Shown here: positions 2,117 through 53,231 of the stretch, in pieces
Numbering within the stretch: position 1 is the first letter of the stretch
How the letters are laid out: each line of letters begins with the position of its first letter
From: an uncultured Clostridia bacterium
Lineage (GTDB): Bacteria; Bacillota; Clostridia; TANB77; CAG-508
Assembly (NCBI GenBank): GCA_944386685.1
Contig: CALXCA010000008.1
Location: 198-64,197 of the forward strand
DNA length: 64,000 nucleotides
Direction of reading: 5' to 3'
Made by a program: the position numbers and the translations under genes
Notes under the pieces: generated by a model
The model's database searches: none
Told to the model about the DNA's origin: nothing
Seen by the model: the letters and a program-made list of their open reading frames with translations, nothing else

Positions 2117-2890
2117 TTACACTCCCATTATATTATATCCATTGTCTGCATATATTACTTGCCCTGTTATTGCTGTTGACATTTCACTTAGTAAGAATGT
2201 TGCCACATTTCCTACTTCTGTTGTTGTTACATTTCTGTGTAATGGTGCTTTTTGTTCTACTATGTCTAAGATTGAATTAAAATCTTTTATTCCTTTTGCT
2301 GATAATGTTTTTATTGGTCCTGCAGATACTGCATTTACTCTTATATTGTCTTTTCCTAAATTATCTGCTAGGTATCTTACACTTGCTTCTAATGCTGCTT
2401 TTGCTATTCCCATTACATTATATCCTTCTAATACTTTTGTTGAACCATGATATGTTAATGTAACTAAACTTGCATTTTCATTTAACATATCTAGTTCTTT
2501 TGCCATTCTTGATACTAATACAAATGAATATGCACTTACGTCACATGCGTGTGAATATCCTTCTTTACTTGTTAATATAAAATCATTGTGTAAATCTTCT
2601 GTGTTTGCATGTGCTATTGCATGTACTATTCCATCAATTTTTCCATTTTCTTCTTTTATTTGTGTAAATACTGTTTTTACTATTTCATCTTCTGATGCTC
2701 CATTTAATACATATGCTTTGCTTCCTTTAAAATCTGAAATTAATGTTTCTATTTTATCTTTGTTTTCTTCTCCCATATATGTAAATAATAATTGTGCTCC
2801 ATTTTCATATGCTGATTTTGCAATTCCATATGCTATACTCCATTTATTTCTTATTCCCATTATTAATATCTTTTTTCCCTCTAATAACAT
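2117..2890 (-). CDS. fabI: enoyl-[acyl-carrier-protein] reductase (NADH), FabI type
   Basis: 257 aa. MLLEGKKILIMGIRNKWSIAYGIAK N-terminus and SDR-like FabI architecture, within a fab cluster. Confidence 0.85.
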   Translation of the reverse strand: MLLEGKKILIMGIRNKWSIAYGIAKSAYENGAQLLFTYMGEENKDKIETLISDFKGSKAYVLNGASEDEIVKTVFTQIKEENGKIDGIVHAIAHANTEDLHNDFILTSKEGYSHACDVSAYSFVLVSRMAKELDMLNENASLVTLTYHGSTKVLEGYNVMGIAKAALEASVRYLADNLGKDNIRVNAVSAGPIKTLSAKGIKDFNSILDIVEQKAPLHRNVTTTEVGNVATFLLSEMSTAITGQVIYADNGYNIMGV

Positions 2891-3041: not shown

Positions 3042-3971
3042 TTATATTATTTGATATTCTCCCATATTTCTAAATTTTTGATATCTTTCTTCTTTTATTT
3101 CTTGTGGGCTTTTTTTACTATATTCTTTTATTGTTTTTAATATCTCTTTTTTTAAATCTTCACTTACTTTTATAAAACTTTCTTCTTGTGTAATTGCATT
3201 TTCTTTTAATTTTTCACTTTCATTAATTGATAAATTTGTATTACTTTCTTTTATTTCCTTACTTTCATCAATTTTTTTACTATCAAAATCTATATCTTTG
3301 CTATTTTTCAAAACATCTATATTATATTTAGGTTCTTTTATAATTTTATCAATTACTTTTAATTCTTTTAAGTCTTTTGCTGTTAATTTCATCTTTTCTG
3401 CAGCTTCTTTGGCTCTTGATGAATCTTTCCACAAAATACTTGCATATCCTTCTGGAGAAAGAATTGAATATATTGCATTTTCTAACATTATTACTTTATT
3501 TCCTAGTCCTAAGGCTAATGCTCCTCCACTTGAACCTTCTCCTATTATTATACTTATTGTTGGTACAGTTAGACTTGCCATTTGTAGCATAGAACTTGCT
3601 ATTGCCTCTCCTTGACCTCTTTCTTCTGCACCAATTCCAGGATATGCTCCTTTTGTGTCTATAAAAGTTATAACTGGTCTATGAAATTTTTCGGCTTGTT
3701 TCATAAATCTTATTCCTTTTCTATAACTTTCTGGGTTTGGCATACCAAAATTTCTTTCTATATTTTCTTTTGTTGTTCTTCCTTTTTGTTCTGCAATTAC
3801 TGTAAAATTTTGTTTTCCTATTTTTGCTAAACCACATACTATTGCTTTATCATCTTTAAATTGCCTATCTCCATGCAATTCTATGAATTCATCAAATATT
3901 TTTTCTATATAATCTAATGATGTTTTTCTTTTTGGATTTCTTGCAATTTCAACTCTATCCCATGCGTCCAT
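3042..3971 (-). CDS. accA: acetyl-CoA carboxylase carboxyltransferase alpha subunit with a K/E-rich C-terminal extension
   Basis: 309 aa. AccA-like blocks [24 protein letters not shown] and [10 protein letters not shown]. The last ~85 aa are a low-complexity K/E/S tail. Confidence 0.88.
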
Positions 3972-4162
3972 TTCTACACCTTTTATAATATACTAAATAT
4001 TAAATATATTACCTTTCTTGAATCTTATTTTTTGCTAAATAAACTATAATCACTTGCTATTTGATATTTTCTCTTTGAATTCGAAAACTCAAATCTGGCA
4101 AGAAGAATTTGTTCTTTCATTTAGTAAAACATTATTTTTTGTTAATTTTTAATAATTTCATG

Positions 4163-5002
4163 TTAATTCTTATTCAATTCAATTAGTTTTGCTAAAGTAT
4201 TTTTTAAATCTTTTCTTTCTACTATTTTATCTATAAAACCATGTTCTAATAAAAATTCTGCTGTTTGAAATCCCTCTGGAAGTTCCTCACCAATTGTTTG
4301 CTCAATTACTCTTTGACCTGCAAAACCTATCATAGCACCTGGTTCTGCTAAAATAATATCTGCCAAACTTGCAAATGATGCAGTTACACCACCATAAGTT
4401 GGATCTGTTAAAACAGATATATATAATAATCCTGCTTCATTTAATTTTTCTATTGCAGATGTTGTTTTTGCCATTTGCATTAAAGAAATAATTCCCTCTT
4501 GCATTCTTGCACCACCAGATACGCAAAATATTATAATTGGTAATTTTAATTCAATAGCTTTTTCTATAGAATATGTAATTTTCTCTCCAACAACAATTCC
4601 CATACTACCCATTAAAAAGCCACTATCCATTACACATATTACAACTTCTTCTCCATTAATTTTTCCTATACCACTACTTACAGCCTCTTGTATTCCTGTT
4701 TTTTCTCTTAATGATTTTAGTTTTTTTGGATAATCTTCTAAATTTAATGGATTTGTAGTATCTATATTAAAATCAAATTTTTTATATGTTCCCTCATCTA
4801 TTATACTTTCTAATCTTTTATTTATATGCATTCTAAAATATCCACCACAATTTGGGCAAATACTTAAATTTTCTCTTAAGGTTTCTTTATAAATTATTTC
4901 TTTACATTTATCACATTTTACCCATTTTCCAACAGGTATGTCTACTTTATTTTGCACTCTTTTTGCTGTTGGCTCTCTTTTTTTGATTTTATCTACTATC
5001 AT
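4163..5002 (-). CDS. accD: acetyl-CoA carboxylase carboxyltransferase beta subunit
   Basis: 279 aa. N-terminal Zn ribbon CDKC..CPNC followed by the carboxyltransferase domain (GGARMQEG). Confidence 0.9.
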
Positions 5003-5019: not shown

Positions 5020-6363
5020 CTATTTTTTTAATATTTCTTTTTCTATAAATGATGTGTCAAAATTGCCTCTAATAAAGTTTTGATTTTTTATTATTTGGAA
5101 TAAAAAGTCTATATTTGTATCTACACCATCTATTACAGTTTCTTCTAATGCTCTTTTCATTTTGCTTATTGCTTCATTTCTAGTATCTCCATGTGTAATA
5201 ATTTTTGCTATCATAGAGTCATATGTCGGTGGAATTGTATATCCTTCATAAATGGCTGTATCTATTCTTATTCCATTTCCTCCTGGTAGGTTTAATCCTG
5301 TAATTGTTCCTGGACATGGCATAAAGTTTTTACTTGGATTTTCAGCATTAATTCTACATTCCATACTATATCCTCTAAATTCAATATCTTTTTGTTTAAA
5401 TCTTAAAGGCTCTCCTGCTGCTATTCTTATTTGTTCTTTTACTATATCTATTCCTGTTCGTTCTTCTGTTATTCCATGTTCTACTTGTATTCTAGTATTC
5501 ATTTCCATAAAATAATAGTTTTTATCTGAATCTACTAAAAATTCAATTGTTCCACAATTTGAGTATCCTGCAATTTTTGCAGCTTTTACTGCTGATTCTC
5601 CCATTTTATTTCTAATTTTATCATCTATTGCTGTTGATGGTGTTTCTTCTATTATTTTTTGATTTCTTCTTTGTATTGAACAATCTCTTTCTCCTAAATG
5701 TATTACATTTCCATGTTCATCTGCTAATATTTGAATTTCTACATGTCGTGGATTTTGAATAAATTTTTCCATATATATTTCATCATCATTAAATGATATT
5801 TTTGCCTCTTGTTTTACAATATGATAATTATTTTCTAATTCTTCTGGATTGTGTGCAATACGTATTCCTTTTCCTCCTCCACCTGCTGCTGCTTTTAACA
5901 TTACTGGATATCCTATTTTTTCAGCAATTTTAAGTGCATCTGTTAGTCCTGCAATACTTCCTTCTGAACCAGGAATTACTGGAACTCCTGCAGATTTCAT
6001 TAATTCTTTTGCTTTTGACTTATTTCCAAGTAAATCTATTACTTCTGGTTTTGGTCCAATAAATTTTATATTTGATTCTTCACATATTTTTGCAAATTGA
6101 CTGTTTTCTGATAAGAAACCAAATCCTGGATGTATACTATCTGCTCCTGTTATATGTGCTGCTTCTATTATATTTTTCATGTTTAAATAACTTTTACTTG
6201 AATTTGCTGGTCCTATGCATATTGCTTCATCTGCTAGTCTTGTATGCATAGCATCTTTATCAATTTCTGAATATACTGCAACTGTTTTTATATTCATTTC
6301 TTTACATGCTCTTATTATTCTAACAGCAATTTCTCCTCTATTTGCAATTAATATTTTATTCAT
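5020..6363 (-). CDS. accC: biotin carboxylase
   Basis: 447 aa. [22 protein letters not shown], the ATP-grasp GGGGKGIR loop and [10 protein letters not shown]. Confidence 0.95.
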
Positions 6364-6421
6364 CTTTTAATTCTATAGTTTCTTCAAGTGAAAAAACTAT
6401 AACTACTCCTTGTATAAATAT

Positions 6422-6455
6422 ATTTAGGTTTTTATAAAATGGCTACCTATAAACC
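6422..6455 (-). promoter_or_regulatory. fab-cluster stem-loop module, copy 1 (upstream of accC)
   Basis: Plus strand reads ATTTAGGTTTTTATAAAATGGCTACCTATAAACC. On the mRNA strand this is GGTTTATAGGT..AAAACCTAAAT, followed by ATACAAGGAG and the start codon. Confidence 0.7.
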
Positions 6456-6472
6456 TTATTGTTCTAAAGTTT

Positions 6473-6679
6473 ATTAAAATTTTTATATATTAATAATTGC
6501 ATAAATTTCTCGACTCAATACGGAAATATAAGAATTTCTAAAATAATTTTATGGCACCCTTTCACTTAGTCCTCGCTACGCTCGACGCGAACATTTTCCA
6601 TAAAATTAATTTAAGAAATTCTAAATTTCCTCCAATCATATTCGAAATTTATTTATTATTAATATATAAAAATTTTTAA
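6473..6679. repeat. 207-bp palindromic (MITE-like) element: ~82-bp imperfect inverted arms around a 43-nt GC-rich core
   Basis: The left arm 6473-6554 and right arm 6598-6679 are reverse complements with a few mismatches. Both termini read ATTAAAA(A)TTTTTATATATTAATAAT. The core is CACCCTTTCACTTAGTCCTCGCTACGCTCGACGCGAAC. Confidence 0.8.
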
Positions 6680-6720
6680 TGAACTGAAACAACTCGCATA
6701 AAGTCTGAAAAAGTAATTTT

Positions 6721-6749
6721 TTGCTTTTATCCATTATATATGGTATAAT
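6721..6749 (+). promoter_or_regulatory. sigma-A-type promoter for the plus-strand ORF 6815-7084
   Basis: TTGCTT (6721-6726), 17-nt spacer, TATAAT (6744-6749) with an upstream TG. Confidence 0.5.
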
Positions 6750-6814
6750 TATTTTAAGCAATATTTGTTGCTAGAAAAACTCTCTTAGAAAAATTTACAT
6801 TGGAGGTGTGCTTT

Positions 6815-7084
6815 ATGTTATCTGAGAACTATGAGTTTTTCAAATTGGCAGATGATTGTCCCTCTTTGGAGAAACAGTTAGAAGACATCGTTGCTAATAA
6901 TGGAGGCAAATTACCTCAAGATTTTCAGCTTAAGCTTGAGGAAATTTTCCAGAGTCAGAGCATCAACACTATTCTTATCAACTCTGGATATCTCCACAAA
7001 GGTCAGGAGATTCGGAAATCTCTTGAGTTTAAGTGCTCCAGCGATGAGATGAAGATTACAGTTAACATCCATGTTAAGCTGTAA
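6815..7084 (+). CDS. hypothetical protein (89 aa), G+C-richer, antisense to the fab cluster
   Basis: ATG at 6815 is preceded by GGAGG at 6802-6806. The track ORF begins at an upstream TTG. It has its own promoter and a downstream GC hairpin. I recognise no family. Confidence 0.6.
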   Translation: MLSENYEFFKLADDCPSLEKQLEDIVANNGGKLPQDFQLKLEEIFQSQSINTILINSGYLHKGQEIRKSLEFKCSSDEMKITVNIHVKL

Positions 7085-7159
7085 TTTACCATCATCAAAA
7101 CAGTAAACTAACATTAAAATGATATGGAAAGAGGATTTCTTATGATTTTTATCTGCCTT

Positions 7160-7182
7160 GGAGGGTTGCACTGCAGCCCTCC
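7160..7182. terminator. GC-rich hairpin between the convergent ORF 6815-7084 and fabZ
   Basis: GGAGGGTTGCACTGCAGCCCTCC forms a near-perfect stem. It sits between two convergent stop codons. The T-tract is weak. Confidence 0.5.
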
Positions 7183-7194
7183 ATTATTTAATTA

Positions 7195-7620
7195 TTATCC
7201 AACAACTGCAAAAGTTAATTCTCCTTTTGCTACAACTTTATCATTTACTGTTGCAATTGCTTCTCCAATTCCTACTGGACCTTTTCTTTTTATTATTTTT
7301 ACTTCTAATTTTAGTCTATCTCCTGGAACCACCATTTTTTTAAATTTCATTTTATCTATTCCACCAAATAAAGCATTTTTTCCTTTATTTTCTGGCATAC
7401 TTAATATTGCTATTGCTCCAGCTTGTGCTAAACTCTCTGTAATTAATACTCCTGGCATTATTGGATTTCCTGGGAAATGTCCTTTAAAATACCATTCATT
7501 TTCGTCTACATTTTTATATGCTATAGCACTTTCTCCTGGTACATATTCTTCAACTTCATCTATCATCAAAAATGGTTCTCTTTGTGGTATTATTTCTTTT
7601 ATTTGTTCTTTATTTAACAT
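7195..7620 (-). CDS. fabZ: 3-hydroxyacyl-ACP dehydratase
   Basis: 141 aa. HFPGNPIMPGVLITESLAQAG hot-dog motif. Confidence 0.92.
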   Translation of the reverse strand: MLNKEQIKEIIPQREPFLMIDEVEEYVPGESAIAYKNVDENEWYFKGHFPGNPIMPGVLITESLAQAGAIAILSMPENKGKNALFGGIDKMKFKKMVVPGDRLKLEVKIIKRKGPVGIGEAIATVNDKVVAKGELTFAVVG

Positions 7621-7672
7621 TTTATTTATAAGTTATATTTATATTAAATATAACTTTCTCCTTATATCACAT

Positions 7673-7704
7673 ATTTAGGTTTTCATAGAGTTTTACCTAT
7701 AAAC
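7673..7704 (-). promoter_or_regulatory. fab-cluster stem-loop module, copy 2 (upstream of fabZ)
   Basis: ATTTAGGTTTTCATAGAGTTTTACCTATAAAC. Confidence 0.7.
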
Positions 7705-7785
7705 TCTTATAAATAGTGCATAAAAATATATAATTATTGTTTTATAATATATTATTTTCAAATATTAATTTCTATAAAAGATATC

Positions 7786-8232
7786 TTATCTAATTCTAAA
7801 CAATGGTTTTCCGTATTCTACCATTTCACCGTCTTTAACTAGTATTTCTGCTATTGTTCCATCAAATTCTGATTCTATTTCGTTCATTAATTTCATGGCT
7901 TCTATAATGCATAATACATCACCTTTTTTTACAGTTTTACCAACTTCTACATATGGTGCAGAATTAGGGTCTGGTCTTAAATAAAATGTTCCTACCATTG
8001 GAGATTTTACAATATTTCCTTGTTCTTCTTTTGTTTCACTTTCTTGTTTTTTTTCTGTTTTTTCAACTACAGGTTGTGATTGTACAATTTGGCTTGTTGT
8101 TCTTTCTATTATTTGCACTTCTTTATCTTTTTTCATTCCAATTCTTGTACCATCTGGAAAATCAATATTTATTTCTGTTAATTTTGAATTTCCCATATCT
8201 TCAATTAATTTTTTTATGTCTTCGTAATTCAT
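7786..8232 (-). CDS. accB: biotin carboxyl carrier protein
   Basis: 148 aa. Biotinylation motif EAMKLMNEIE in the C-terminal lipoyl-like domain. Confidence 0.92.
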   Translation of the reverse strand: MNYEDIKKLIEDMGNSKLTEINIDFPDGTRIGMKKDKEVQIIERTTSQIVQSQPVVEKTEKKQESETKEEQGNIVKSPMVGTFYLRPDPNSAPYVEVGKTVKKGDVLCIIEAMKLMNEIESEFDGTIAEILVKDGEMVEYGKPLFRIR

Positions 8233-8256
8233 TTTTTACATTCCTTGTATTATAAA

Positions 8257-8289
8257 ATTTAGGTTTTTATATGGATTTACCTATAAACC
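8257..8289 (-). promoter_or_regulatory. fab-cluster stem-loop module, copy 3 (upstream of accB)
   Basis: ATTTAGGTTTTTATATGGATTTACCTATAAACC. Confidence 0.7.
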
Positions 8290-8300
8290 ATAATAATATT

Positions 8301-9542
8301 TTACAAAGTAAATTTTTTTAATATTACACTTGCATTATGTCCACCAAAACCTAATGAATTTGACATTACTAACTTTAGGTCTGCATCTCTTACTTCATTT
8401 GGAACTATATCTAAATCACAGTCTTCATCTTTTTCTTTATAATTTATTGTTGGAGGTACTTTTCCTGTTTCTAATGCTTTTGTACAGAATATTGCTTCAA
8501 CTCCTCCTGCTGCTCCTAATAAATGTCCTATATTTCCTTTTGTAGAACTTACCATTACTTTATTTGCAGATTCTCCAAAAGCTTTTTTTATTGCCATTGT
8601 TTCACACAAATCATTTAAATGTGTTGATGTTCCATGTGCATTTATATAATCTACATCTTCTGGTTTAATATTTGCACTTTCCATTGCTCTAACCATTGCT
8701 CTAGAAGCACCATCTCCATCTGGTGATGGTGATGTTATATGATATGCATCAGATGTTGCACCATATCCTACAACTTCTGCATATATTTTAGCTCCTCTTT
8801 TTTGTGCATGTTCTAATTCTTCTAGAATTAAAATTCCTGCACCTTCTCCCATTACAAATCCGCTTCTTTGTTTATCAAATGGAATACTTGCTCTATTTTT
8901 ATCTGTTGTTTCATTTGTTAATGCTTTCATGTTTTCAAAACCTGCTATTCCTATTTCACAAATAGATGCCTCTGTTCCTCCTGCAATTATAACATCTTCA
9001 AAACCATCTCTAATATTTCTAAAAGCTTCACCTATAGCATGTGTTGAAGATGCACAAGCAGATACAATTGAAATAGATTCTCCTTTTGCACCTAATTCTA
9101 TTGCTATATTTCCAGCTGGCATATTTGCTATTGTCATTGGAATAAACATTGGAGAAATTCTGTTATGACCTTTTTCAAAACATGTAAAACATTGTTCTTG
9201 AATTGTTGTTAATCCTGCAATTCCTGAGCTTACAAATACCCCTATTCTGTTAAAATCTGTATTTTCTGCATTAATTCCACTATCTTCAAAAGCTTCTTTA
9301 GATGCAATTATTGCAAATTGAGAACTTCTGTCTAATCTTTTTGATTGTTTTAAATCAAAATAATCTTGTGAATTATAGTTTTTTACTTCTCCTGCAAATT
9401 TTGTTTTAAATGTACTTGTGTCAAATAATGTAATATTATCTATTCCACATTTTTGGTCTAAAATTCCTTGCCATGTTTCTTTTACATTTTTTCCTATTGG
9501 TGTAATTGCTCCAATACCTGTTATTACAACTCTTTTTTCCAT
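8301..9542 (-). CDS. fabF: 3-oxoacyl-ACP synthase II
   Basis: 413 aa. Active-site blocks SACASS, NAHGTSTHLND and GHLLGAAGG. Confidence 0.92.
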   Translation of the reverse strand: MEKRVVITGIGAITPIGKNVKETWQGILDQKCGIDNITLFDTSTFKTKFAGEVKNYNSQDYFDLKQSKRLDRSSQFAIIASKEAFEDSGINAENTDFNRIGVFVSSGIAGLTTIQEQCFTCFEKGHNRISPMFIPMTIANMPAGNIAIELGAKGESISIVSACASSTHAIGEAFRNIRDGFEDVIIAGGTEASICEIGIAGFENMKALTNETTDKNRASIPFDKQRSGFVMGEGAGILILEELEHAQKRGAKIYAEVVGYGATSDAYHITSPSPDGDGASRAMVRAMESANIKPEDVDYINAHGTSTHLNDLCETMAIKKAFGESANKVMVSSTKGNIGHLLGAAGGVEAIFCTKALETGKVPPTINYKEKDEDCDLDIVPNEVRDADLKLVMSNSLGFGGHNASVILKKFTL

Positions 9543-9567
9543 TTTTAATCCAATCCTCTTTTTATTT

Positions 9568-9593
9568 ATTTAGGTTTTATGGTACCTATAAAC
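9568..9593 (-). promoter_or_regulatory. fab-cluster stem-loop module, copy 4 (upstream of fabF)
   Basis: ATTTAGGTTTTATGGTACCTATAAACC (shortest loop). Confidence 0.7.
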
Positions 9594-9674
9594 CAACTTC
9601 TATAATTTCAATAAACTAATATTTCAAATCTGTTTGGGCTAAAATTTTTTATTCCAAATCATCTAAAAATAATT

Positions 9675-10430
9675 TTACATAACCATTCCGCCGTCAACAT
9701 TTATTACTTGACCTGTAATATAAGAACTATCATCAGATGTTAAGAATTTTACTACTTTTGCAACTTCTTGTGCAGAACCCATTCTTTTCATTGGAATATT
9801 TTTTGCAATTTCATTTTTTATTTCTTCTTTTAATACACCTGTCATATCTGTTTCTATAAATCCTGGTGCAATTGCATTAACTAAAATATTTCTTGATGCA
9901 ACCTCTTTTGCTAAACTTTTTGTAAATCCTATTATTCCTGCTTTTGATGCAGAGTAATTTGTTTGTCCTGCATTTCCTACTATTCCTACAACAGAAGAAA
10001 TATTTATTATTCTACCACTATGTGCTTTCATCATATAACTTATAACATTTTTTGTAACATTATATGTTCCACCTAAATTTGTATCTATAACTTGTTTAAA
10101 ATCTTCTTCTTTCATTCTGATTAATAAACAATCTCTTGTTATTCCTGCATTATTTACTAAAACATCTATATGTCCAAATTTTTCTATTATTTCTTTAACA
10201 AATCTTTCACAATCTTCATATTTAGATACATCACCTTGAACTGCTAATACTTCTACTCCTAATTCTGCTATCTCTTTTTTTGCATTTTCTAAATCTTCGT
10301 TTTCTTTTCTGTAATTTAATGCAATATTATATCCCTCTTTTGCAAGTGTTATTGCAATTTGTTTTCCTATTCCTCTTGTAGCTCCTGTAATTAAAGCAAC
10401 TTTTTTGATATTTTCCATAATAAATTCCAT
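9675..10430 (-). CDS. fabG: 3-oxoacyl-ACP reductase
   Basis: 251 aa SDR with TGATRGIG and YSASKAG. The true start may be the second ATG at 10418 (MENIKK..). Confidence 0.9.
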   Translation of the reverse strand: MEFIMENIKKVALITGATRGIGKQIAITLAKEGYNIALNYRKENEDLENAKKEIAELGVEVLAVQGDVSKYEDCERFVKEIIEKFGHIDVLVNNAGITRDCLLIRMKEEDFKQVIDTNLGGTYNVTKNVISYMMKAHSGRIINISSVVGIVGNAGQTNYSASKAGIIGFTKSLAKEVASRNILVNAIAPGFIETDMTGVLKEEIKNEIAKNIPMKRMGSAQEVAKVVKFLTSDDSSYITGQVINVDGGMVM

Positions 10431-10471
10431 TCCTTTCTTTTGAAAATAAAATTTTTTCTATTTAAAATTTT

Positions 10472-10518
10472 ATTTTCACTTTGAGTTGCGAAAACTAAAG
10501 TTTCTTATTGTTTCCTAT
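10472..10518. repeat. dispersed intergenic hairpin repeat, family C copy
   Basis: ATTTTCACTTTGAGTTGCGAAAACTAAAGTTTCTTATTGTTTCCTAT. Related copies lie at 57870-57916, 59773-59820, 4063-4111 and 44950-44997. Confidence 0.75.
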
Positions 10519-11450
10519 TTTATTAAATTATTTAAAACATTATCTAATGTTTCTACATTATTAATATTTAAAATATTTATTTCTTTTTCTGTTTCTATTT
10601 TTTTAACAAAGCCAGATAATGTTTTTCCTGGTCCTATTTCTATAAAAGTATCTACTCCTAAATCTATCATTTTTTGTAAACTATCAGAAAATCTTACTGG
10701 ATGTGTTATATGATCTGCTAATATTTGTTTAATATCATCTTCTTTTTTATAAATATCTGCATTTATATTTTTTACTACTAAAGATTTTCCTTCATTAATT
10801 TTTACATTTTCTAGATATTTTTTTAATTCTATTGAAGCTTTTTCTAATTTAATTGTGTGGAATGGTCCAGCTGTTTTTAATTCTCTAACTTTTCTTGCTC
10901 CCATTTCTTTTGCAATTATTCCTGCTTCTGTAACTCCTTCTTTATCTCCAGATATTACTATTTGACCTGGACAGTTAAAGTTTACTGGTGTAGCAAATCC
11001 TTTTGTAACTTTTGAGCAAACTTCATTAACTTGTTCTTCATTCATTCCTAAAATTGCAGACATTAACCATTCTCCATCTGGCACTAAGTTTTGCATAAAA
11101 TCTCCACGTTTTTGCACTAATTTAACTCCTTCTTCAAAACTTAATATTCCACTATAAATTAATGCTGAATATTCTCCTAAGCTTAATCCTGCTGATACTT
11201 CTGCTTTTATATTATTTTTTTCTAGAATTTTTAATATTGCTAAACTCATTGTTAAAATACACATTTGTGTATTTGCTGTTTTGTTTAATTCTTCTTCTGG
11301 TCCTTCAAATGTAAGTTTTTCTACATCTATTCCTGTTAATTCATGTACTTTTTTATATACTTCTCTTATTTCTTCATATTTGTCATATAAATCTTTTCCC
11401 ATTCCAATACTTTGTGAACCTTGACCTGGAAATAAAAATCCTATTTTCAT
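10515..11450 (-). CDS. fabD: malonyl-CoA:ACP transacylase
   Basis: 311 aa. FPGQGSQ and GLSLGEYSA motifs. Confidence 0.92.
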   Translation of the reverse strand: MKIGFLFPGQGSQSIGMGKDLYDKYEEIREVYKKVHELTGIDVEKLTFEGPEEELNKTANTQMCILTMSLAILKILEKNNIKAEVSAGLSLGEYSALIYSGILSFEEGVKLVQKRGDFMQNLVPDGEWLMSAILGMNEEQVNEVCSKVTKGFATPVNFNCPGQIVISGDKEGVTEAGIIAKEMGARKVRELKTAGPFHTIKLEKASIELKKYLENVKINEGKSLVVKNINADIYKKEDDIKQILADHITHPVRFSDSLQKMIDLGVDTFIEIGPGKTLSGFVKKIETEKEINILNINNVETLDNVLNNLIK

Positions 11451-11471
11451 TTAAAACTCCTTGTATAATAT

Positions 11472-11502
11472 ATTTAGGTTTTTAAAAGGTTCCCTATAAA
11501 CC
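11472..11502 (-). promoter_or_regulatory. fab-cluster stem-loop module, copy 5 (upstream of fabD)
   Basis: ATTTAGGTTTTTAAAAGGTTCCCTATAAACC. Confidence 0.7.
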
Positions 11503-11647
11503 TTATTTATTATTTTTTATTATTAGCATACACATTTATTATTTTGTTTGGCAAAAAATGATTAAATTTTTTATCTTGTTAATGGATTTTTACATTTATT
11601 ATTATTTTTATGTTGCAAATAAATTGACTTGCATTCTTAATCTTGTA

Positions 11648-12301
11648 TCAAATTAGAATATTTTTACTTATTAAATGCTTTTCAAATTCTTTGCAAAATT
11701 GTTTTATAATTAACATATTATCTATATTTATGTTAAACTCTTTTTTTATTGATGTAGCAATATTTTTTATGTCTTCTGGGAATTGTTGTTTATTTGTATT
11801 TATTCCTATTCCAATTACTAAATATTTTACTCTATCTTTTAATATTTTTGATTCTGTTAAAATTCCACCTATCTTTTTACCATTATATACAATATCATTT
11901 GGCTCTTTTATTTGTAAATCTATTTGGTATAAATTTTTAAATACTCTTAAAATAATTTTAGCAATTTCAATTGTTATTCCATCTAATTTTTGGTATTTAC
12001 AATCTGTTTCTATATAAAGCGAAAATGCTATATTATTATCTTCATCTGTCTGCCAAATTCTACCATGTGTTCCTTTTCCATTTGTTTGTTTGTCTGCAAT
12101 TATTATCAAACCATTTTCTATATTATTTTGTTCTATTCTTCTATGTATTTCTAATTGTGTAGAATCTATTATTTTATAATGTTCTATTTTGTTTCCTATT
12201 TTTTTTTGTTCTACTCGTATAGGTATTTCTGATTGTATTAAATCTATTTTTTTATAATGTTCTAACTTGTTTCCAATATATTTTTTATTCAAATTTATCA
12301 A
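11648..12301 (-). CDS. birA: biotin-protein ligase-like protein (catalytic domain only) with a duplicated N-terminal segment
   Basis: 217 aa. KQTNGKGTHGRIW matches the BPL GRGRxGRxW-type motif. No HTH domain. The N-terminus carries a 2 x 26-aa tandem repeat. The start overlaps the upstream gene by 17 nt. Confidence 0.65.
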   Translation of the reverse strand: MINLNKKYIGNKLEHYKKIDLIQSEIPIRVEQKKIGNKIEHYKIIDSTQLEIHRRIEQNNIENGLIIIADKQTNGKGTHGRIWQTDEDNNIAFSLYIETDCKYQKLDGITIEIAKIILRVFKNLYQIDLQIKEPNDIVYNGKKIGGILTESKILKDRVKYLVIGIGINTNKQQFPEDIKNIATSIKKEFNINIDNMLIIKQFCKEFEKHLISKNILI

Positions 12302-13988
12302 ATTCCTTTTTTATTAATTCTAAATTTTTTTCTCTTTTTATTTTGTTTGTAGTTGTTTTTATTAAAGGTACATCAGAAATAATTGTTCCTCTAATTGCTT
12401 TATAACGTGGCATTACTTTATTAACTTCACTTATTTTTTGACTTATTTCTTTTTCAATTTCTTCTTTTGTTTTTCCTTCAAAATGTTCTTTATTATAAAC
12501 TACTTTTACAAAAATTTTTATATTTGTTGGATCTTCTGACATTTGCTTTCCAAAGATAAATGATTCTTCTATTCCATCTTCTTTATTTATTAAGCTTTCC
12601 ATTTCTTCTGGATAAATGTTCTTTCCATTTTTTAAAACTATAACATTTTTCTTTCTTCCACAAATGAATATATATCCTTCTTCATCTATTTTTGCTAAAT
12701 CACCTGTATGAAACCATTCATCTTTTAAAACTTTTTCTGTTGCTTCTTTATTTTTATAATATCCTATCATTACATTTGGTCCTTTTACAGCAAGTTCTCC
12801 AATTCCTTGTTTATTTACATTTAATAATTTAACTTCTTCACTTGGAAGTGCTTTTCCAATAGAACCAATTTTATGATATTTGTTATTTCCTACTGCAACA
12901 ATTGGAGATGTTTCTGTTAATCCATATCCTTGTACTATATTAAAACCTAAATTTCTAAATTTTTCTTCTATTTTTGCATCTAAACTTGCAGCACCACTAA
13001 TAAATAATCTTATATTTCCTCCAAGTAGTTCATGCAAATCTTTAAAAATTGCTTTTTTATTTTCCATAGAATCATTTTTATGTTTTTCTTCTTCAATTAA
13101 TATTTCTTCTAAATTTCCTTTTTTTTCTATTTGCTTTCTAACTATTTTAAATAGCCTTTCATATATTGCTGGAACTGATGCCATTACAGATGCTTTATAT
13201 TCTTTTAGGTTTTCTGGAATATGTCTTATTCCATCACTAAATACTATTTGTGCTCCTATATATAGTGGATATAAAAATCCAACTGTACATTCAAACACAT
13301 GGTGTAATGGTAAAAATGATAAAAATATATCTTTAGAATTTACATCTAATGTTGATGCAATATCCATTAAATTTGAACATATATTTTTATGTGATAATGC
13401 AACTGCTTTTGATTGTGATGTTGTTCCTGATGTAAATAACATTATACTCATTTTTTTATTATCAATTTCTGCATTTGTAAACCTTGTGTCTCCATTTTCT
13501 ACAAGTTTTTTACCTTTTTCTATTAATTCTTTTTGTGAAATAATTTCATCTTCTGTTTTTTCTAAATCCATTGAAATAATATATTTTAAATTTTTAGTTC
13601 TTACTTTTTTTAGTGTTTCTATATATTTTCCTGAACAAATTATTGCTTCTACTTCTGAACGTTTTAGTAAACTTTCCAATTCATTTTCTGGTAAAGATTT
13701 ATCTAAAGGTACTACTATTCCTGTTCCACATACTATTGATAAATATGCTATTTCCCATTCAAAACGATTTTCTCCTATTACTGCTATTCTTTTATCTTTA
13801 AGTCCCATATCTATTAGAGATGTTCCTAAGCCATCTATCATTTTTCTCACTTCTTCATGTGTGTATGTTTTGTATTTTCCTTCTTCTTTACGAATTTTGT
13901 ATGCAATATTTTTTCCATATTTTTGTCCAGATTTTTTTAACATGTCTTTTAAATCTGTTATTTCTATGTATTTATATAATCTTTCCAT
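12285..13988 (-). CDS. AMP-forming long-chain acyl-CoA ligase-like enzyme
   Basis: 567 aa. AMP-binding signature LFTSGTTSQSKAV, plus GYGLTETSP and TGDLAKIDEEGY. Confidence 0.82.
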   Translation of the reverse strand: MERLYKYIEITDLKDMLKKSGQKYGKNIAYKIRKEEGKYKTYTHEEVRKMIDGLGTSLIDMGLKDKRIAVIGENRFEWEIAYLSIVCGTGIVVPLDKSLPENELESLLKRSEVEAIICSGKYIETLKKVRTKNLKYIISMDLEKTEDEIISQKELIEKGKKLVENGDTRFTNAEIDNKKMSIMLFTSGTTSQSKAVALSHKNICSNLMDIASTLDVNSKDIFLSFLPLHHVFECTVGFLYPLYIGAQIVFSDGIRHIPENLKEYKASVMASVPAIYERLFKIVRKQIEKKGNLEEILIEEEKHKNDSMENKKAIFKDLHELLGGNIRLFISGAASLDAKIEEKFRNLGFNIVQGYGLTETSPIVAVGNNKYHKIGSIGKALPSEEVKLLNVNKQGIGELAVKGPNVMIGYYKNKEATEKVLKDEWFHTGDLAKIDEEGYIFICGRKKNVIVLKNGKNIYPEEMESLINKEDGIEESFIFGKQMSEDPTNIKIFVKVVYNKEHFEGKTKEEIEKEISQKISEVNKVMPRYKAIRGTIISDVPLIKTTTNKIKREKNLELIKKEFDKFE

Positions 13989-14008
13989 TATATTATTCCT
14001 TATTGTAA

Positions 14009-14039
14009 ATTTAGGTTTTGTGGAAAAAACCTATAAACC
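14009..14039 (-). promoter_or_regulatory. fab-cluster stem-loop module, copy 6 (upstream of the acyl-CoA ligase)
   Basis: ATTTAGGTTTTGTGGAAAAAACCTATAAACC. Confidence 0.7.
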
Positions 14040-14074: not shown

Positions 14075-14096
14075 TTATACTGATAGGTCAGTATAA
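14075..14096. promoter_or_regulatory. perfect 9-4-9 palindrome overlapping a minus-strand TATAAT (candidate operator)
   Basis: TTATACTGA-TAGG-TCAGTATAA. On the minus strand, CAGTATAAT supplies a -10 hexamer about 90 nt upstream of the ligase ATG. Confidence 0.45.
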
Positions 14097-14219: not shown

Positions 14220-15791
14220 TTATTTTATATAATAAACATTACATGCATTTAATCCTTTTATCCATTCCCAACTTGTTAAACCTGTTGCTTTTGTGATTTT
14301 ATCCATAATATCATCATTTTCTTGACCACCATTTATAAAAATAACTAATCCATTAGATAAATCTTTATCTTTTACAATGTTTTGAATATTTTCTTCTGTA
14401 CATTCAACATCTTTTGCAACATATGATTCATCTAATACAGAAAATAATAAAATATCATCTAAAAATCTATTTTCATTTGAATTAAACATAAAAATTGTTG
14501 GTACATTTAGTTCATTTTGTAGTTTATTTACAATATCTCTTTTATCTAAAAACATTTCTTCTGGTTCCATTCTAAATATAATTGGTGTTATCATAATTAT
14601 AATACAAATGATAAGCATTGTTATATCTAGCTTTTTGCCTTGAACAAGATTGCTAATTAAATTATATAATAAATATAAAATTAAAATAAATATCAATCCA
14701 CATACAGGCATTATATATCTTAATTCTATCCATGGTGATGCTATTGCTATTATTACTGAATAAAATAATGTTGGTATTGCAATATATTTTATATATTTAT
14801 TTTTTTCTATTTCAATTTTTTGTTTTTTAACTTTTTTATATATAACAATTCCTAACATCGCAATTAAAATTATAAATAGCAATCCATTAAAAGCATGTCT
14901 ATTTATTTTATAAATATATAAACATATATTAGTTAAAAATTGTGATATATTTGTTAAATTGCTTATTGCTCCTTGTCCTCTATATCCAAAGAACATATGT
15001 TGTATTGAATATGGGAATATTATTAATGATAATACTCCTGCTATGCACATTGTTACAAAATATGCAATAAGTTCTTTGTACCTTTTTTCTTTTATGTATT
15101 TTATTACAAACATTATAAACATCATTACTAAATAGAATAAATAATAGTAATGTGTTAATGAACCTGCTAATGCTGATAGTCCTATAAAGAATAATAATTT
15201 ATAATCTATTTTATCTTTTTCTAATAATTTCATGTGTAAATATGTTGTTATTACAATATTTAGTGTTGATAATGCATACATTCTTATATATACAACATTT
15301 GTTATTGATGATAGTATAATAGATGATAAAAATGCTATAAATGCTGATTTTTCTTTATATTTTGGTTTTCCCTTTAATAATTTTTGTATTATTAAATACA
15401 TAAATATTGTTACAAACATGTAAATAATTATATTTATTATTACTCCTGGCCATTGTGAATAACTATTTTTGTGGAATCCCATAGCTATTCTTAATAATAA
15501 ATAGTATAATGGTGGATGTACATCATTTTTTTGATTTTCATATACCTGGCTGAATTTTCCTGTTTCATCATCATTTACACATAAATAATCTTCATAATAT
15601 TCTCCATTATGCCATGTGTTGTAAAAATCTTCGTTATTTTGTATTTCTACTTTATCATAACTTGCTAAACCTAATGAATATGCTTCATCCATATGTATAT
15701 AGGATTTGTTTGCTCCCATTATTATAAATATTATTGTTTGTATTATTAGTATAATAGTTATTATAATTTTTTCATTTCTTTTCTCTTCCAT
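14220..15791 (-). CDS. GT-C fold glycosyltransferase (family 39 / ArnT-PMT-like), polytopic membrane protein
   Basis: 523 aa with many TM helices. The NDVHPPLYYLLLR loop is characteristic of ArnT/PMT_2-type enzymes. Confidence 0.7.
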   Translation of the reverse strand: MEEKRNEKIIITIILIIQTIIFIIMGANKSYIHMDEAYSLGLASYDKVEIQNNEDFYNTWHNGEYYEDYLCVNDDETGKFSQVYENQKNDVHPPLYYLLLRIAMGFHKNSYSQWPGVIINIIIYMFVTIFMYLIIQKLLKGKPKYKEKSAFIAFLSSIILSSITNVVYIRMYALSTLNIVITTYLHMKLLEKDKIDYKLLFFIGLSALAGSLTHYYYLFYLVMMFIMFVIKYIKEKRYKELIAYFVTMCIAGVLSLIIFPYSIQHMFFGYRGQGAISNLTNISQFLTNICLYIYKINRHAFNGLLFIILIAMLGIVIYKKVKKQKIEIEKNKYIKYIAIPTLFYSVIIAIASPWIELRYIMPVCGLIFILILYLLYNLISNLVQGKKLDITMLIICIIIMITPIIFRMEPEEMFLDKRDIVNKLQNELNVPTIFMFNSNENRFLDDILLFSVLDESYVAKDVECTEENIQNIVKDKDLSNGLVIFINGGQENDDIMDKITKATGLTSWEWIKGLNACNVYYIK

Positions 15792-16173
15792 ATGTTATTT
15801 CTCCATCTGCTCTTATTGTATAAATATTTTTACTTCCTAAAAATGTAATGTAAAAATAATTTTCATCTGTAGCGTCAATTTCTAGTGTATAGTCTCTATT
15901 TTCTATTCCAATATTTTGGTCTAAATATCTTTTTAATATATTGTATTCTACTTTTGCTCCAGGGCTTTTTCCCATTGCTATTGCAACTGATGTATTTATT
16001 ATTTCTCTTTCTTCTACTACACTATATGTTTTTTTTGCTTCTTTTGAATTTCTAATTAATCCGTGTTCTCCTGTTAATGTACTTATTGTTATTGTTGATA
16101 TTATAAGTAATACCACTACTGTTGTTATAAGAGCTACAAGTGTTATACCTTTGTTATTCTTTAGTATATTCAT
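15772..16173 (-). CDS. prepilin-type N-terminal domain protein (pseudopilin-like)
   Basis: 133 aa. MNILKNNKG|ITLVALITTVVVLLIISTITISTLTGEHG resembles class III signal/pilin N-termini, but lacks Glu at +5. It overlaps the downstream GT gene by 20 nt. Confidence 0.55.
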   Translation of the reverse strand: MNILKNNKGITLVALITTVVVLLIISTITISTLTGEHGLIRNSKEAKKTYSVVEEREIINTSVAIAMGKSPGAKVEYNILKRYLDQNIGIENRDYTLEIDATDENYFYITFLGSKNIYTIRADGEITYGREKK

Positions 16174-16206
16174 TTTATATTTTTTCCTTTCTATTTGGGC
16201 AATTTT

Positions 16207-16330
16207 GTGCCGGTTCTCTTTTTTCCTTTTTGCTGTTTTCTTGTTGTTATTGGGGTCGGTCCCTTTTCTTTGTTAGGGTCGGTCCCTTTCTTTGTTGGGG
16301 TCGGTCCCTTTCTTTGTTGGGGTCGGTCCC
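16207..16330. repeat. second GC-rich array: GTGCCGGTTCTC box plus 4 units of GGGGTCGGTCCCTTTCTTTGTT
   Basis: The box is at 16207-16218. Cores lie at 16252-16263, 16276-16286, 16297-16308 and 16319-16330, a 22-23 bp period. It is the reverse complement of the 1873-2098 array unit. Confidence 0.92.
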
Positions 16331-31745: not shown

Positions 31746-33254
31746 TTAAAAATGTTTACCTTTCTTTTTAGATGTACTTGCATAGTCATCATTATCAAAT
31801 AATTTTCTTACCTTTTCTCTTGTTTCAGATGTTTTGTTATCATCATCTTCATTATCATCATTATTTTCAATGCTATTATCAAAATTTGTTAGTTCTTGAT
31901 GTTCTGTTAAAGCTTTATCTAATTCTTCTACTCCTGGAAAATCAATATCATCATCTTCATCCATTCTAGATAATCTAACTTTAAATATTATTGCAACAAC
32001 TACTATTATAATTAAAACAATTAATGTTCCTATTATTACATATTGTTTTAACCCCCATGTTGATGGATTTAACCAATTTACTTCTTCTACTGTTTCTGGT
32101 ACATAATTTTTATTTATAGTTAATTGATATGTAGCACTTTTTTCTGCATCTGCTGTATCACTAACAACTATAGTTATTGTGTTTTCTCCTTGTTGTAAAT
32201 TTTCATTTCCAAATATTTCTACAGTTCCTGTTTCACTAGTTGGTTTGGCATCAATTTCTAATGTTGATAAATCTTCTGTTAATCCTGCTGTATATTCATA
32301 TGTTGTTGTTTTAAACTTTGGGTTTATGTTTAGCCCTGCTATTGTTAAACTACTTAAACCAAATACATCTAAATTTGTTTGTTCTGTTGTTGGCTCTGTT
32401 ACAGGTTCTGTAGTAGGTTCTGTTGGTTCTGTTGAAACTGCTGGTATTTCCTCTTCTGCTGCTTTTCTTGTAATATTTAATGTATATGTATGTTTTGTTT
32501 TACCATCTTCTGCAACAACTACAACTTCTACCTTGTTTGCTCCTTCTTTTAATTCTACATTCCCTGTTCCAGATTGTATCTTTGCTTTTGAATCAACTAG
32601 ATTAGCATAAACTTGTACTTTGCTTACATCATTTGGAACTTCTACATCATATTCGTATTTATTTTTTGTAAATCCTGTAAAATCATTTGGTCTTATTCCT
32701 AAATTAGAAAGTCTAGCTTCACTAGATTTTTCTTCTTCTGTTGGCTTTGCTGGTTCTGTTGGTTTTTCTTCTGGTTGTGTTGGAGTATTTGGCGTACTTG
32801 GTTGCTCTGGATTTGTTGGTGGTGTTTGTGCTTCTGGAGCTTTTACCTTTACAACTGCTGTGTTACTTGCATCTGGTACAGAATCTAAATTAGTTGTTTC
32901 CATTCCATGTGCACTAAATTTAATATTATATGTAGTATCTTGTGTTACAGTTGGAACTTTAAATGTAAAATTACCTAATGATGTAATTCCATCTGTTGAT
33001 GAACCTGTTATTCTCTTATTATCAGAGCTTATTTGTTGTCCTCCACTAGCACTAACTAGTTCTAATCCTCCTGTATCTGTTAAGTCTAAAGTATATGCTC
33101 CTAATGGATCTGTTGATGTAACTACAATTGTTACATTTCCATCTCCAGAATTTACTTCTTTATCTGTTGAAAGAATACTTGCATTTACTTTAGTTTGAAA
33201 TAATATCATTATACAAATTATCATAAATATTGTGCTAATAATTTTATTTTTCAT
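31746..33254 (-). CDS. type I membrane protein: cohesin-like N-terminal domain, two cadherin-like beta-sandwich domains, a P/T/E linker, a TM helix and an acidic tail
   Basis: 502 aa with a signal peptide. Two L..L.I....F...YEY...V......V.A...D..A.....G...L..G.N...V.V.AEDG....Y.L.I.R-type repeats. TM helix at VIIGTLIVLIIIVVVAIIF. Confidence 0.65.
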   Translation of the reverse strand: MKNKIISTIFMIICIMILFQTKVNASILSTDKEVNSGDGNVTIVVTSTDPLGAYTLDLTDTGGLELVSASGGQQISSDNKRITGSSTDGITSLGNFTFKVPTVTQDTTYNIKFSAHGMETTNLDSVPDASNTAVVKVKAPEAQTPPTNPEQPSTPNTPTQPEEKPTEPAKPTEEEKSSEARLSNLGIRPNDFTGFTKNKYEYDVEVPNDVSKVQVYANLVDSKAKIQSGTGNVELKEGANKVEVVVVAEDGKTKHTYTLNITRKAAEEEIPAVSTEPTEPTTEPVTEPTTEQTNLDVFGLSSLTIAGLNINPKFKTTTYEYTAGLTEDLSTLEIDAKPTSETGTVEIFGNENLQQGENTITIVVSDTADAEKSATYQLTINKNYVPETVEEVNWLNPSTWGLKQYVIIGTLIVLIIIVVVAIIFKVRLSRMDEDDDIDFPGVEELDKALTEHQELTNFDNSIENNDDNEDDDNKTSETREKVRKLFDNDDYASTSKKKGKHF

Positions 33255-33310
33255 ATTAAATTCAATTCCTTTCTTATTTTTTAATACTTTAATATAAATA
33301 TTTAAAATCG

Positions 33311-49809: not shown

Positions 49810-50010
49810 GAAGAATAGCGGGCTTTTTTGACATTTTATATCCGTTTGAGCCAAGCTTTGTTCTTGAATAGGAAAAACTTGATTTTCCTATTCAAAAACA
49901 ATAGCGGACATTTTTTTAATATATAAAATATTTAAAAAAGTCCGCGTTATTGTTTATGTGGCAATTTTACAAAATAAACATAATTGCATCTGTTTTAGTA
50001 GAGTTCTTTT
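49810..50010. repeat. composite of dispersed intergenic repeats (family D/A), two nested copies
   Basis: AATAGCGGGCTTTTTTGACATTTTATATCCGTTTGAGCCAAGCT.. and AACAATAGCGGAC..GTCCGCGTTATTGTT..TTGCATCTGTTTTAGTAGAGTTC. These are homologous to 57693-57811 and 61698-61823. Confidence 0.8.
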
Positions 50011-53000: not shown

Positions 53001-53149
53001 GCTGTTGGTGGTCCATCATAAAATGTGAAATATCTTTTACCTTTATTCATATCAAAATTCTTTTGGATTATTCCTTTTTTATTCCACATTTCTGCTACTT
53101 CTCTTTCCATTCCAACAAAGCCATTTTTTAATTCTACTTTTTTATACAT
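50009..53149 (-). CDS. ileS: isoleucine-tRNA ligase (long, type-2-like form)
   Basis: [12 protein letters not shown] (HIGH) and KMSKSKKNG (KMSKS). Start set at MYKKVELK (53149) after the GGAGGAAATATT RBS. The 20-codon track extension runs through an intergenic repeat. Confidence 0.95.
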
Positions 53150-53176
53150 AATATTTCCTCCTTTTGGTAATTGGGT

Positions 53177-53231
53177 AATTTGGTGCCGGTTCTCTTTTTG
53201 ACCAGGCAATTTGGTGCCGGTTCTCTTTTTG
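53177..53231. repeat. two direct copies of AATTTGGTGCCGGTTCTCTTTTTG (31-bp period)
   Basis: Copies lie at 53177-53200 and 53208-53231. They carry the same GTGCCGGTTCTC box that flanks the arrays at 2087-2098 (reverse complement) and 16207-16218. Confidence 0.92.

Follow-up and report, generated by a model that had tools for sequence, protein, structure and literature searches.

A dispersed module with a putative H-type pseudoknot fold precedes ribosome-binding sites in uncultured gut Clostridia and occurs six times in one fab/acc cluster

Introduction

Compact folds standing just upstream of a Shine-Dalgarno (SD) sequence are known from riboswitches such as the preQ1-I aptamer (RF00522), and short intergenic palindromes are known from repetitive extragenic palindromic (REP) sequences, bacterial interspersed mosaic elements (BIMEs) and Correia repeats. 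Here we analyze a short module that recalls both. It was encountered in a stretch of 64,000 nucleotides from an uncultured Clostridia bacterium (GenBank assembly GCA_944386685.1, contig CALXCA010000008.1, positions 198 to 64,197; hereafter the window), in which it stands in front of six genes of a single fab/acc cluster. An initial annotation of this cluster had described the module as a conserved stem-loop linked to the ribosome-binding site (RBS) and had considered a role in lipid metabolism.

Among small cis-regulators with an H-type pseudoknot, the preQ1-I aptamer is the closest structural analogue of the module. The likeness lies in a size of about 30-35 nt, a predicted H-type topology with a 5-bp first stem (S1), an A-rich third loop (L3), a second stem (S2) of the UAG/CUA type, and a position just upstream of the SD. 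Unlike preQ1-I, however, the module does not match the covariance model of that family, even at E <= 10, and lacks the invariant ligand-specifying C in the second loop (L2), where its position 10 varies. Its SD lies outside the fold, and it has no queuosine gene context but occurs in many copies per lineage at unrelated genes. As a genomic analogue, REP or Correia-type repeats come closest; REP sequences, BIMEs and Correia repeats are likewise short imperfect intergenic palindromes, co-transcribed with their neighbours, often located right after stop codons, and gained or lost between relatives. The module differs from them by its single orientation toward the downstream gene, its fixed distance to the SD, and the fact that its copies share arms but not loops; moreover, its covariation suggests a pseudoknot rather than a plain hairpin, and no inverted pairs were seen, nor a Y1 transposase in the 64-kb window.

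Three further groups of elements bear comparison. The 5' stabilisers of Firmicutes (the aprE and ermC leaders, the cryIIIA STAB-SD and the cggR-gapA processing site) also place a structure 5' of an RBS, sometimes within an operon, and they share with our proposal a block to 5'-to-3' decay and an uncoupled stability of cistrons. Yet they are single-locus elements without shared sequence, whereas the module is a sequence family at many loci with a conjectural stabilising role. The FapR and FabT operators resemble it only in having a site within a fab cluster and a partial inverted repeat; the arm spacing of the module is variable, its position is intercistronic and not at promoters, it is not restricted to lipid genes, and it is absent from orthologous fab clusters. 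Finally, chloroplast PPR10-type intercistronic elements and exoribonuclease-resistant RNAs (xrRNAs) would offer a functional analogy, since they are intercistronic RNAs that stop exonucleases and free a downstream RBS; they belong, however, to another kingdom and to other folds.

Results

Seven copies of the module in the window

A search of the window with the pattern ATTTAGGTTTT-N(3-16)-CCTATAAAC returned seven matches, compared to none in 100 dinucleotide-preserving shuffles. Six of these, with the minus strand as mRNA sense, lie in the fab/acc cluster (Table 1) and confirm the oriented six-copy module that had been reported there. They precede the ATG codons of accC, fabZ, accB, fabF, fabD and the ligase gene by 58, 52, 24, 25, 21 and 20 nt, respectively, and copy 3 occupies the 68-nt fabF-accB gap; these gene names are upheld by Pfam, and the range of 20-58 nt and the size of the gap hold as first given. 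The seventh copy, whose sense is the plus strand, lies outside the fab cluster and had been overlooked. The mRNA-strand sequence of every copy is GTTTATAGG-N-AAAACCTAAAT.

When we used a profile built from 124 instances, nhmmer found just the seven copies in the 64-kb window, without further weaker ones, and only 6 extra, unseeded copies in about 0.9 Mb. A hidden stock of diverged copies was rejected on these grounds. The density elsewhere can thus be estimated at about 1 copy per 150 kb, against which six copies in 7.6 kb represent a genuine local burst. Wherever conspecific metagenome contigs cover one of the six fab sites, the copy is present.

Covariation of two helices

To assess S2, we scanned metagenomes for copies in which position 9 is not G and left the putative partner free. 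With A at position 9, the partner was T in 74 of 88 hits, giving TAGAT...ATCTA; 65 of these 74 possess a typical loop and SD and stand at many different genes. Only four SD-bearing A9 hits keep the C, three of them being one identical sequence, and the pair was also seen once as U-A and once as C-G. For S1, the position immediately before the module (-1) had been free in the first scan. Its combination with the last base of box 2, a CC box inside the apparent loop, was G/C in 111 copies, A/T in eight, A/C in three and G/T in one (Fisher p = 1.4e-9). Eight separate loci, each with its own loop, account for the A/T cases, and among them is the fabZ copy of the window (copy 2), in which the outermost S1 pair is a compensated A-U.

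In a condensed alignment from which L3 had been removed and in which short linkers were padded with N, position 9 and the first C of the 3' box (c5') were GC in 86 copies, AU in 39, UA in one and CG in one. The S1 pair between position -1 and C16 was counted as GC in 108 copies, AU in seven and GU in three. Both pairs covary in this alignment; 89% of the cells are paired, none of 500 shuffles reached the observed score, and slid controls scored far lower. GC-type and AT-type variants of S2 share contigs, where only a few kb separate them (loci L088, L102, L105 and L178 among those fetched), so the covariation does not reflect a DNA-binding protein that shifted its specificity in one lineage.

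The variants also discriminate between pairing registers. Box 2 remains CC where G9 is replaced by A, so it is not paired with G8G9, and an inner mini-hairpin AGG:CC(U) was rejected for this reason. It is in box 2, and not in the 3' box, that A(-1) finds its compensating change; this assigns the 5' GG to box 2 and led us to dismiss the outer register GGUUU:AAACC of the 3' box. An SD-sequestering pseudoknot, in which the CC of the loop would pair with the GG of the SD, fared no better, because the SD is invariably AAGGA and just about 44% of copies have U ahead of the CC; such pairing would span 2-5 bp at best. Nested folding of eight copies with RNAfold gave -4 to -7 kcal/mol, z-scores of -0.55 to +0.54 and inconsistent folds; with a stability no better than that of shuffled sequence, a plain hairpin is insufficient.

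A compact H-type pseudoknot is moderately well supported by these pairings. In S1, G(-1)G1U2U3U4 would pair with the AAA(N)CC of box 2; A5 would form the first loop (L1); in S2, U6A7G8G9 would pair with the CCUA of the 3' box; U10 would serve as L2; and L3 would be the variable A/U-rich stretch that ends in AAAA. A single-stranded tail with the consensus AAU-AUAUUAUAC would follow, and the SD AAGGA would start 8-12 nt past the module. Both features that define the H-type class are found, namely two covarying helices and compatible loop lengths: L1 measures 1 nt, L2 1-2 nt and L3 5-14 nt, never less than 5, which is sterically compatible with both helices. About 5 nt is the estimated minimum for a strand that crosses a 5-bp helix. 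Position 10 is variable (T in about 80%) and fits an unpaired linker. The stem-loop of the initial annotation therefore stands as far as base pairing is concerned, and the compensatory changes support its preference for pairing over a fixed-spacing dimer operator; its free loop does not stand, since the conserved CC box in that loop pairs with the 5' GG.

Anatomy of the module

We derived the anatomy of the family from 126 instances. The module is 26-37 nt long, with modes at 29-30 and 33-34 nt, and is preceded by G in 87% of cases. Its apparent loop mostly begins with T and contains the CC box in 89% of copies, most commonly after UAAAN, five bases past G9; from this box to the 3' CC runs the A/U-rich, AAAA-ended stretch of 5-14 nt. 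Downstream, the consensus is ATATTATAC-AAGGA, and about half of the copies retain a recognisable ATATTATACAAGGA tail. Across the family, the GG of the SD lies 8-12 nt and the start codon 20-27 nt past the module. The SD form TACAAGGA trails four of the seven window modules; the window has just two more occurrences of it, one of which falls within the ligase gene. The SD of other genes is GAAAGGA or AAGGAGG. Loops vary among copies and among strains while the arms are constant, a pattern that indicates purifying selection at each locus. The conserved, oriented and RBS-linked character ascribed to the element is thereby upheld.

Distribution across gut Clostridia

One genome per species was scanned for GTTTATAGG-N(4-17)-AAAACCTAAAT, and at least 118 stretches from at least about 95 assemblies match this pattern. 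The matches listed come nearly all from metagenome-assembled genomes of uncultured gut "Clostridia" or "Clostridium sp. CAG", with human, rabbit, chicken, mouse and deer as hosts, and in almost every one of them the module points sense-wise at a downstream SD and open reading frame (ORF). Also among the matches listed, the 104 downstream ORFs that were translated hit 169 different Pfam families. The commonest are tRNA synthetases of the Met/Asp/Lys type, ABC transporters, release factors and phosphoglucomutase, and the module also precedes metG and prfA; PolA, GatB, FtsW and PEP-utilising enzymes are single examples. None of the 25 most frequent Pfam families of these ORFs is a fab/acc family, and the ORFs include only about 6 orthologous pairs, which is about the level of random placement. 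Viral contigs yielded seven module matches only, too few to be informative.

With respect to the gene upstream, 94 of the 126 copies come after a co-directional ORF; for about 40 of them the stop codon of that ORF is at most 35 nt away, and in three copies the TAG of the module itself is that stop. The 17 copies that face a divergent gene are all at least 123 nt away from it. These data demonstrate that the module is a dispersed family across a clade of uncultured AT-rich gut Clostridia and has no association with lipid genes. The proposed link to lipid metabolism is thus lost: at the level of the lineage, the motif stands before unrelated genes, essentially the outcome that the initial annotation had named as its own refutation, and a lipid-sensing translational operator is very unlikely.

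Searches against Rfam 15 revealed no matching family, neither at the gathering threshold nor at E <= 5 and E <= 10 on the module regions; a relaxed search gave sub-threshold noise only (cow-rumen-4, caiA and a plant-virus pseudoknot). A literature search on the motif strings returned nothing but primer coincidences, and the main text of a survey of structured RNAs in the human microbiome does not mention such an element (PMC8040213).

Gain of the six fab copies

The module is absent from the orthologous fab clusters of relatives. These clusters (L132-L135, with FabF 76-81% identical, and L256-L258, with 91%) keep the gene order, have gaps of 3-67 nt, and carry no module anywhere. As they are compact and module-free, the six fab copies are a recent gain of this species. 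The fabF-accB gap illustrates the change: in a relative it reads TAA-N21-AAGGAATATGTAAAAATG, and in the window a 32-nt module is inserted upstream of the same AAGGAAT-GTAAAAAATG. The AAGGAAT..GTAAAAATG beside copy 3 likewise occurs in the module-free relative L256. The relative L133 lacks the module in its fab operon and has an AT-type copy (GGTTTATAGAT...AAAATCTAAAT) in the clpP-clpX gap (2384-2431 of that locus), which illustrates that the set of module-bearing genes varies between species.

Sequences upstream of the module and a candidate fab operator

Directly upstream of copy 4 (fabF), the shortest copy in the window with 26 nt, lies TTGAAA-17-TATAGA-5 nt, and upstream of copy 6 (ligase) an extended -10-like TGgTATAAAT that ends 7 nt before G(-1) and 8 nt before the core. 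In both copies the -35/-10-like boxes are placed for a start of transcription at the first G of the module, and -10-like hexamers are mildly enriched at -14/-13 across the family. Both observations are consistent with a fold that forms the very 5' end of some transcripts. The module as such was rejected as a sigma-70-type promoter, since it shows no conserved box pair at a spacing of 16-18 nt and no positional -35/-10 signal upstream. It was likewise rejected as an intrinsic terminator: no terminator-like site overlaps any module, and the sequence that follows is AUAUUAUAC.

Upstream of the ligase gene, the preceding gene ends in a terminator-like hairpin, after which comes the palindrome TATACTGACCTATCAGTATAAT (14075-14096), which overlaps a TATAAT. 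Its core, ACTGAC-N4-CAGT (14079-14092), is present in all eight fetched fab loci that cover the region, with or without modules (L001-L004, L006, L132, L133 and L135), and is absent from the remainder of 258 loci (about 1.9 Mb in total). By this distribution, ACTGAC-N4-CAGT is a better candidate than the module for a lipid-responsive fab operator.

Table 1. Module copies and fab/acc cluster genes in the window. Positions are those of the 64-kb window; gene identities are from Pfam, and all cluster genes lie on the minus strand.
Feature	Positions	Strand	Details
Module copy 1, accC	6405-6455	-	core 6422-6454; G(-1) 6455; box 2 AGCC
Copy 1 tail ATATTTATACAAGGAG		-	holds SD at 6407-6414
Module copy 2, fabZ	7658-7705	-	core 7673-7704; A(-1) at 7705; box 2 AAAACT
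Copy 2 SD AAGGAG	7658-7663	-	
Module copy 3, accB	8242-8289	-	core 8257-8288; G(-1) 8289; box 2 AAATCC
Copy 3 SD TACAAGGA	8242-8249	-	
Module copy 4, fabF	9555-9594	-	core 9568-9593; box 2 ACC; L3 AUAAAA
Copy 4 SD AAGAGGA	9555-9561	-	
Module copy 5, fabD	11458-11502	-	core 11472-11501; position 10 = G; box 2 AACC; tail ATATTATACAAGGAG
Module copy 6, acyl-CoA/AMP-binding ligase (first gene of cluster)	13997-14039	-	core 14009-14038
Module copy 7	19179-19226	+	core 19180-19209; tail ATTATTTTATACAAGGA
AMP-binding ligase	12285-13988	-	Pfam
Biotin/lipoate ligase-like	11648-12301	-	Pfam
fabD	10515-11450	-	Pfam
fabG	9675-10430	-	Pfam
fabF	8301-9542	-	Pfam
accB	7786-8232	-	Pfam
fabZ	7195-7620	-	Pfam
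accC	5020-6363	-	Pfam
accD	4163-5002	-	Pfam
accA	3042-3971	-	Pfam
fabI-like	2117-2890	-	Pfam

Other features of the cluster and the window

Perfect palindromic hairpins of 20-40 nt separate a strong SD (AAGGAG or AAGGGAGG) from the start codon of accC (6374-6401; 8 bp, ATG at 6363), fabZ (about 7632-7654; ATG at 7620) and the fabI-like gene (about 2905-2925). Such insertions leave the SD 35-60 nt from the ATG, and they occur, with a different sequence each time, in L083, L092, L100, L103, L105 and L121 as well. By analogy, they look like a "split RBS", in which folding would bring the SD and the AUG together; gene 38 of phage T4 is an example of this arrangement. The fabZ-accC gap furthermore holds an imperfect palindrome of about 200 nt (6476-6676; outer arms of 22 nt, perfect, and inner arms of 33 nt), which adjoins a small ORF on the opposite strand (6800-7084); in conspecific strains, deletions at this site bring the centre of the palindrome beside module copy 1. 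A related small hairpin repeat, CTTTGAGTTGCGAAAACTAAAG / TTTGAGTTTTCGAATTCAAAG, is located at 10480-10510 in the fabD-fabG gap and at about 4040-4070 in the accD-accA gap, two gaps that are also expanded in comparison with other species, yet have no module.

Downstream of copy 7 (19235-19490), the ORF ends after 14 codons; about 70 codons can then be read in another frame, up to a terminator-like hairpin at about 19495-19520. The same layout is present in strain L004, and the gene behind copy 7 may be a frameshifted small gene. Just upstream of this copy, at 18907-19085 and in a related unit at 18068-18127, there are 2-3 direct repeats ending in ...CTTACCGTATTCTTTGGAGATTTGAAAC with a 66-nt period; they resemble a tiny or degenerate array of clustered regularly interspaced short palindromic repeats (CRISPR). 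A promoter-like segment, itself repeated (18027-18072 and 18717-18763), stands ahead of each block.

Two unrelated genes (ORFs 15772-16173 and 50009-53149) share a second 5' leader, GAGAACCGGCAC(C/A)AAATT(A/G)CCCAA, which stands immediately ahead of their SD on the minus strand (about 16180-16225 and about 53155-53200, respectively). It may be a further leader of the reusable kind or belong to a structured RNA. The window also encodes a DDE transposase (IS4/IS5-like) as well as cadherin-like and dockerin-domain proteins (40564-41874; 31746-35026). Judging by the dockerin, the host may be a relative of cellulosome-bearing Clostridia.

Discussion

Strict orientation, a fixed distance to the SD, placement after stop codons and constant arms together suggest a cis-acting RNA whose target is the downstream cistron. 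We propose, at a probability of roughly 0.45, that the module acts in cis as a structured RNA, located at the 5' edge of the RBS, and would make the downstream cistron an autonomous post-transcriptional unit. As a compact and mechanically robust fold, the pseudoknot would block 5'-to-3' decay of the RNase J type or mark the end left by processing, and it would keep the A/U-rich tail and the SD unpaired whatever sequence stands upstream. In the fab/acc cluster, six such gains would uncouple, and probably raise, the expression of genes that are tightly packed in relatives. An RNA structure that serves as a processing or stability site, one of the options of the initial annotation, thus still provides the best class of explanation, with its function being what we infer. 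An SD-sequestering riboswitch is unlikely because the SD lies outside both helices and general anti-SD pairing is missing.

Several points weigh against this proposal. Most paired positions were fixed by the search patterns, so that two pairs alone were free to vary, and each variant class could descend from one founder subfamily. S1 is weak in some copies: in copies 4 and 6 it amounts to 2-3 bp, and in copy 7 the A at position -1 faces CC as an uncompensated A-C mismatch. S1 and S2 could also be alternative folds that do not form simultaneously. Nested folding detects no excess stability, by a method that cannot model pseudoknots. That the module acts as sense-strand RNA is inferred from orientation and pairing, as the asymmetry between G-U and A-C combinations (1 vs 3; 1 vs 4) is too sparse to establish the strand. 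The stabilising or insulating function is a conjecture, and the strong conservation of the stems and of the AAAA would fit a trans-acting factor equally well.

The alternative that survives best, although we regard it as unlikely, follows from this last point. The module could be the operator RNA of a global trans-acting factor (an RNA-binding protein, a small ligand or a small RNA) that represses or activates translation of a scattered regulon into which the fab operon was recruited. The stems and the unpaired AAAA/UAAAU are nearly invariant in about 95 assemblies and at different loci while the loops drift, although part of the invariance of the unpaired bases is an artefact of the search patterns. 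Size and topology resemble those of small ligand-binding pseudoknots such as preQ1-I, but position 10 in L2 is not invariant and Rfam offers no matching riboswitch family even at E <= 10. The tail AUACAAGGAUG may resemble the CsrA consensus from systematic evolution of ligands by exponential enrichment. Six copies in one operon would allow coordinated control; the target genes, however, are almost wholly different between species, which is unusual for a regulon, and the SD stands 8-12 nt downstream, outside the pseudoknot and free of any general anti-SD pairing.

A simple hairpin UAGG(U)/(A)CCUA whose loop is under no constraint, acting as a processing or stability stem-loop and with S1 as a coincidence, has a distinctly lower probability. 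It would draw on the S2 covariation, the stronger of the two signals, on the frequency with which RNAfold draws this hairpin, and on the poor S1 of some copies. Left unaccounted for would be the CC/CT box that sits in the loop of about 89% of copies and covaries with position -1, the conserved G(-1) and AAAA, and the hard minimum of 5 nt for L3; its stability, moreover, does not exceed that of shuffled sequence.

We likewise give little credence to a selfish element of the REP type or akin to miniature inverted-repeat transposable elements, with little or no function for the host, whose pairings would be needed in single-stranded DNA by a REP-associated tyrosine transposase (RAYT) or an IS200/IS605-type transposase. 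The ends of IS200/IS605 elements do combine a hairpin with pairing between a guide and the cleavage site, and the module is a short, dispersed, intergenic, imperfect palindrome at locations that are essentially random between species; its recent gain and local multiplication in one operon, in a genome with other small palindromic insertions, would suit such an origin. The strict sense orientation to the downstream gene at a fixed SD distance speaks against mobility. Copies 6 and 7, opposite in orientation, lie only 5.1 kb apart, each following its own gene rather than the direction of replication. Copies in the same genome share arms while their loops are entirely different, which suggests old, selected copies and not recent transposition. 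At 4-5 bp, the helices fall well short of known TnpA or RAYT hairpins, and among 40 scanned window ORFs (64 kb of genome) there is no Y1 transposase, the sole transposase being of the DDE type.

Least credible by far is a DNA-level element, be it a fatty-acid operator of the FapR/FabT type or an internal sigma-70-type promoter for each gene: six copies within one lipid operon, the decent -35/-10 boxes of the fabF and ligase copies and the mild -10-like enrichment would speak for it, but the module is missing from the fab clusters of relatives and present at unrelated genes, its bimodal length clashes with the geometry of both a dimer operator and -35/-10 boxes, GC-type and AT-type variants coexist in one genome, no promoter is consistently placed upstream of the module, promoter-like hits in the cluster fall below the shuffled expectation, and a separate fab-specific palindrome stands upstream of the operon.

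The cis-acting, RBS-linked RNA that we favour can be taken one step further. In this bolder and rather doubtful form, the module would be a new class of portable element in bacterial 5' untranslated regions, a triplex-type pseudoknot of about 30 nt that stalls 5'-to-3' exoribonucleolysis or docks a global RNA-binding regulator and can be copied, along with its own SD tail, before any cistron. If true, it would be the RNase J counterpart of viral xrRNAs, and a lineage would rewire the expression of an operon gene by gene, as it would have done six times in this fab operon.

Dispersed short repeats and small cis-regulatory pseudoknots are each well known, but the combination of both is uncatalogued: a sequence-conserved and covarying element, fused to the 5' edge of the RBS, at unrelated genes, and with six gains in one operon. 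Our analysis corrects a tempting mis-annotation of a lipid regulon and redirects attention to the separate candidate fab operator. Should the module be stabilising or insulating, it would give synthetic biology in low-GC Firmicutes an insulator part of natural origin, about 50 nt long, and for the bacteria that carry it, it would permit the modular retuning of single genes inside an operon.

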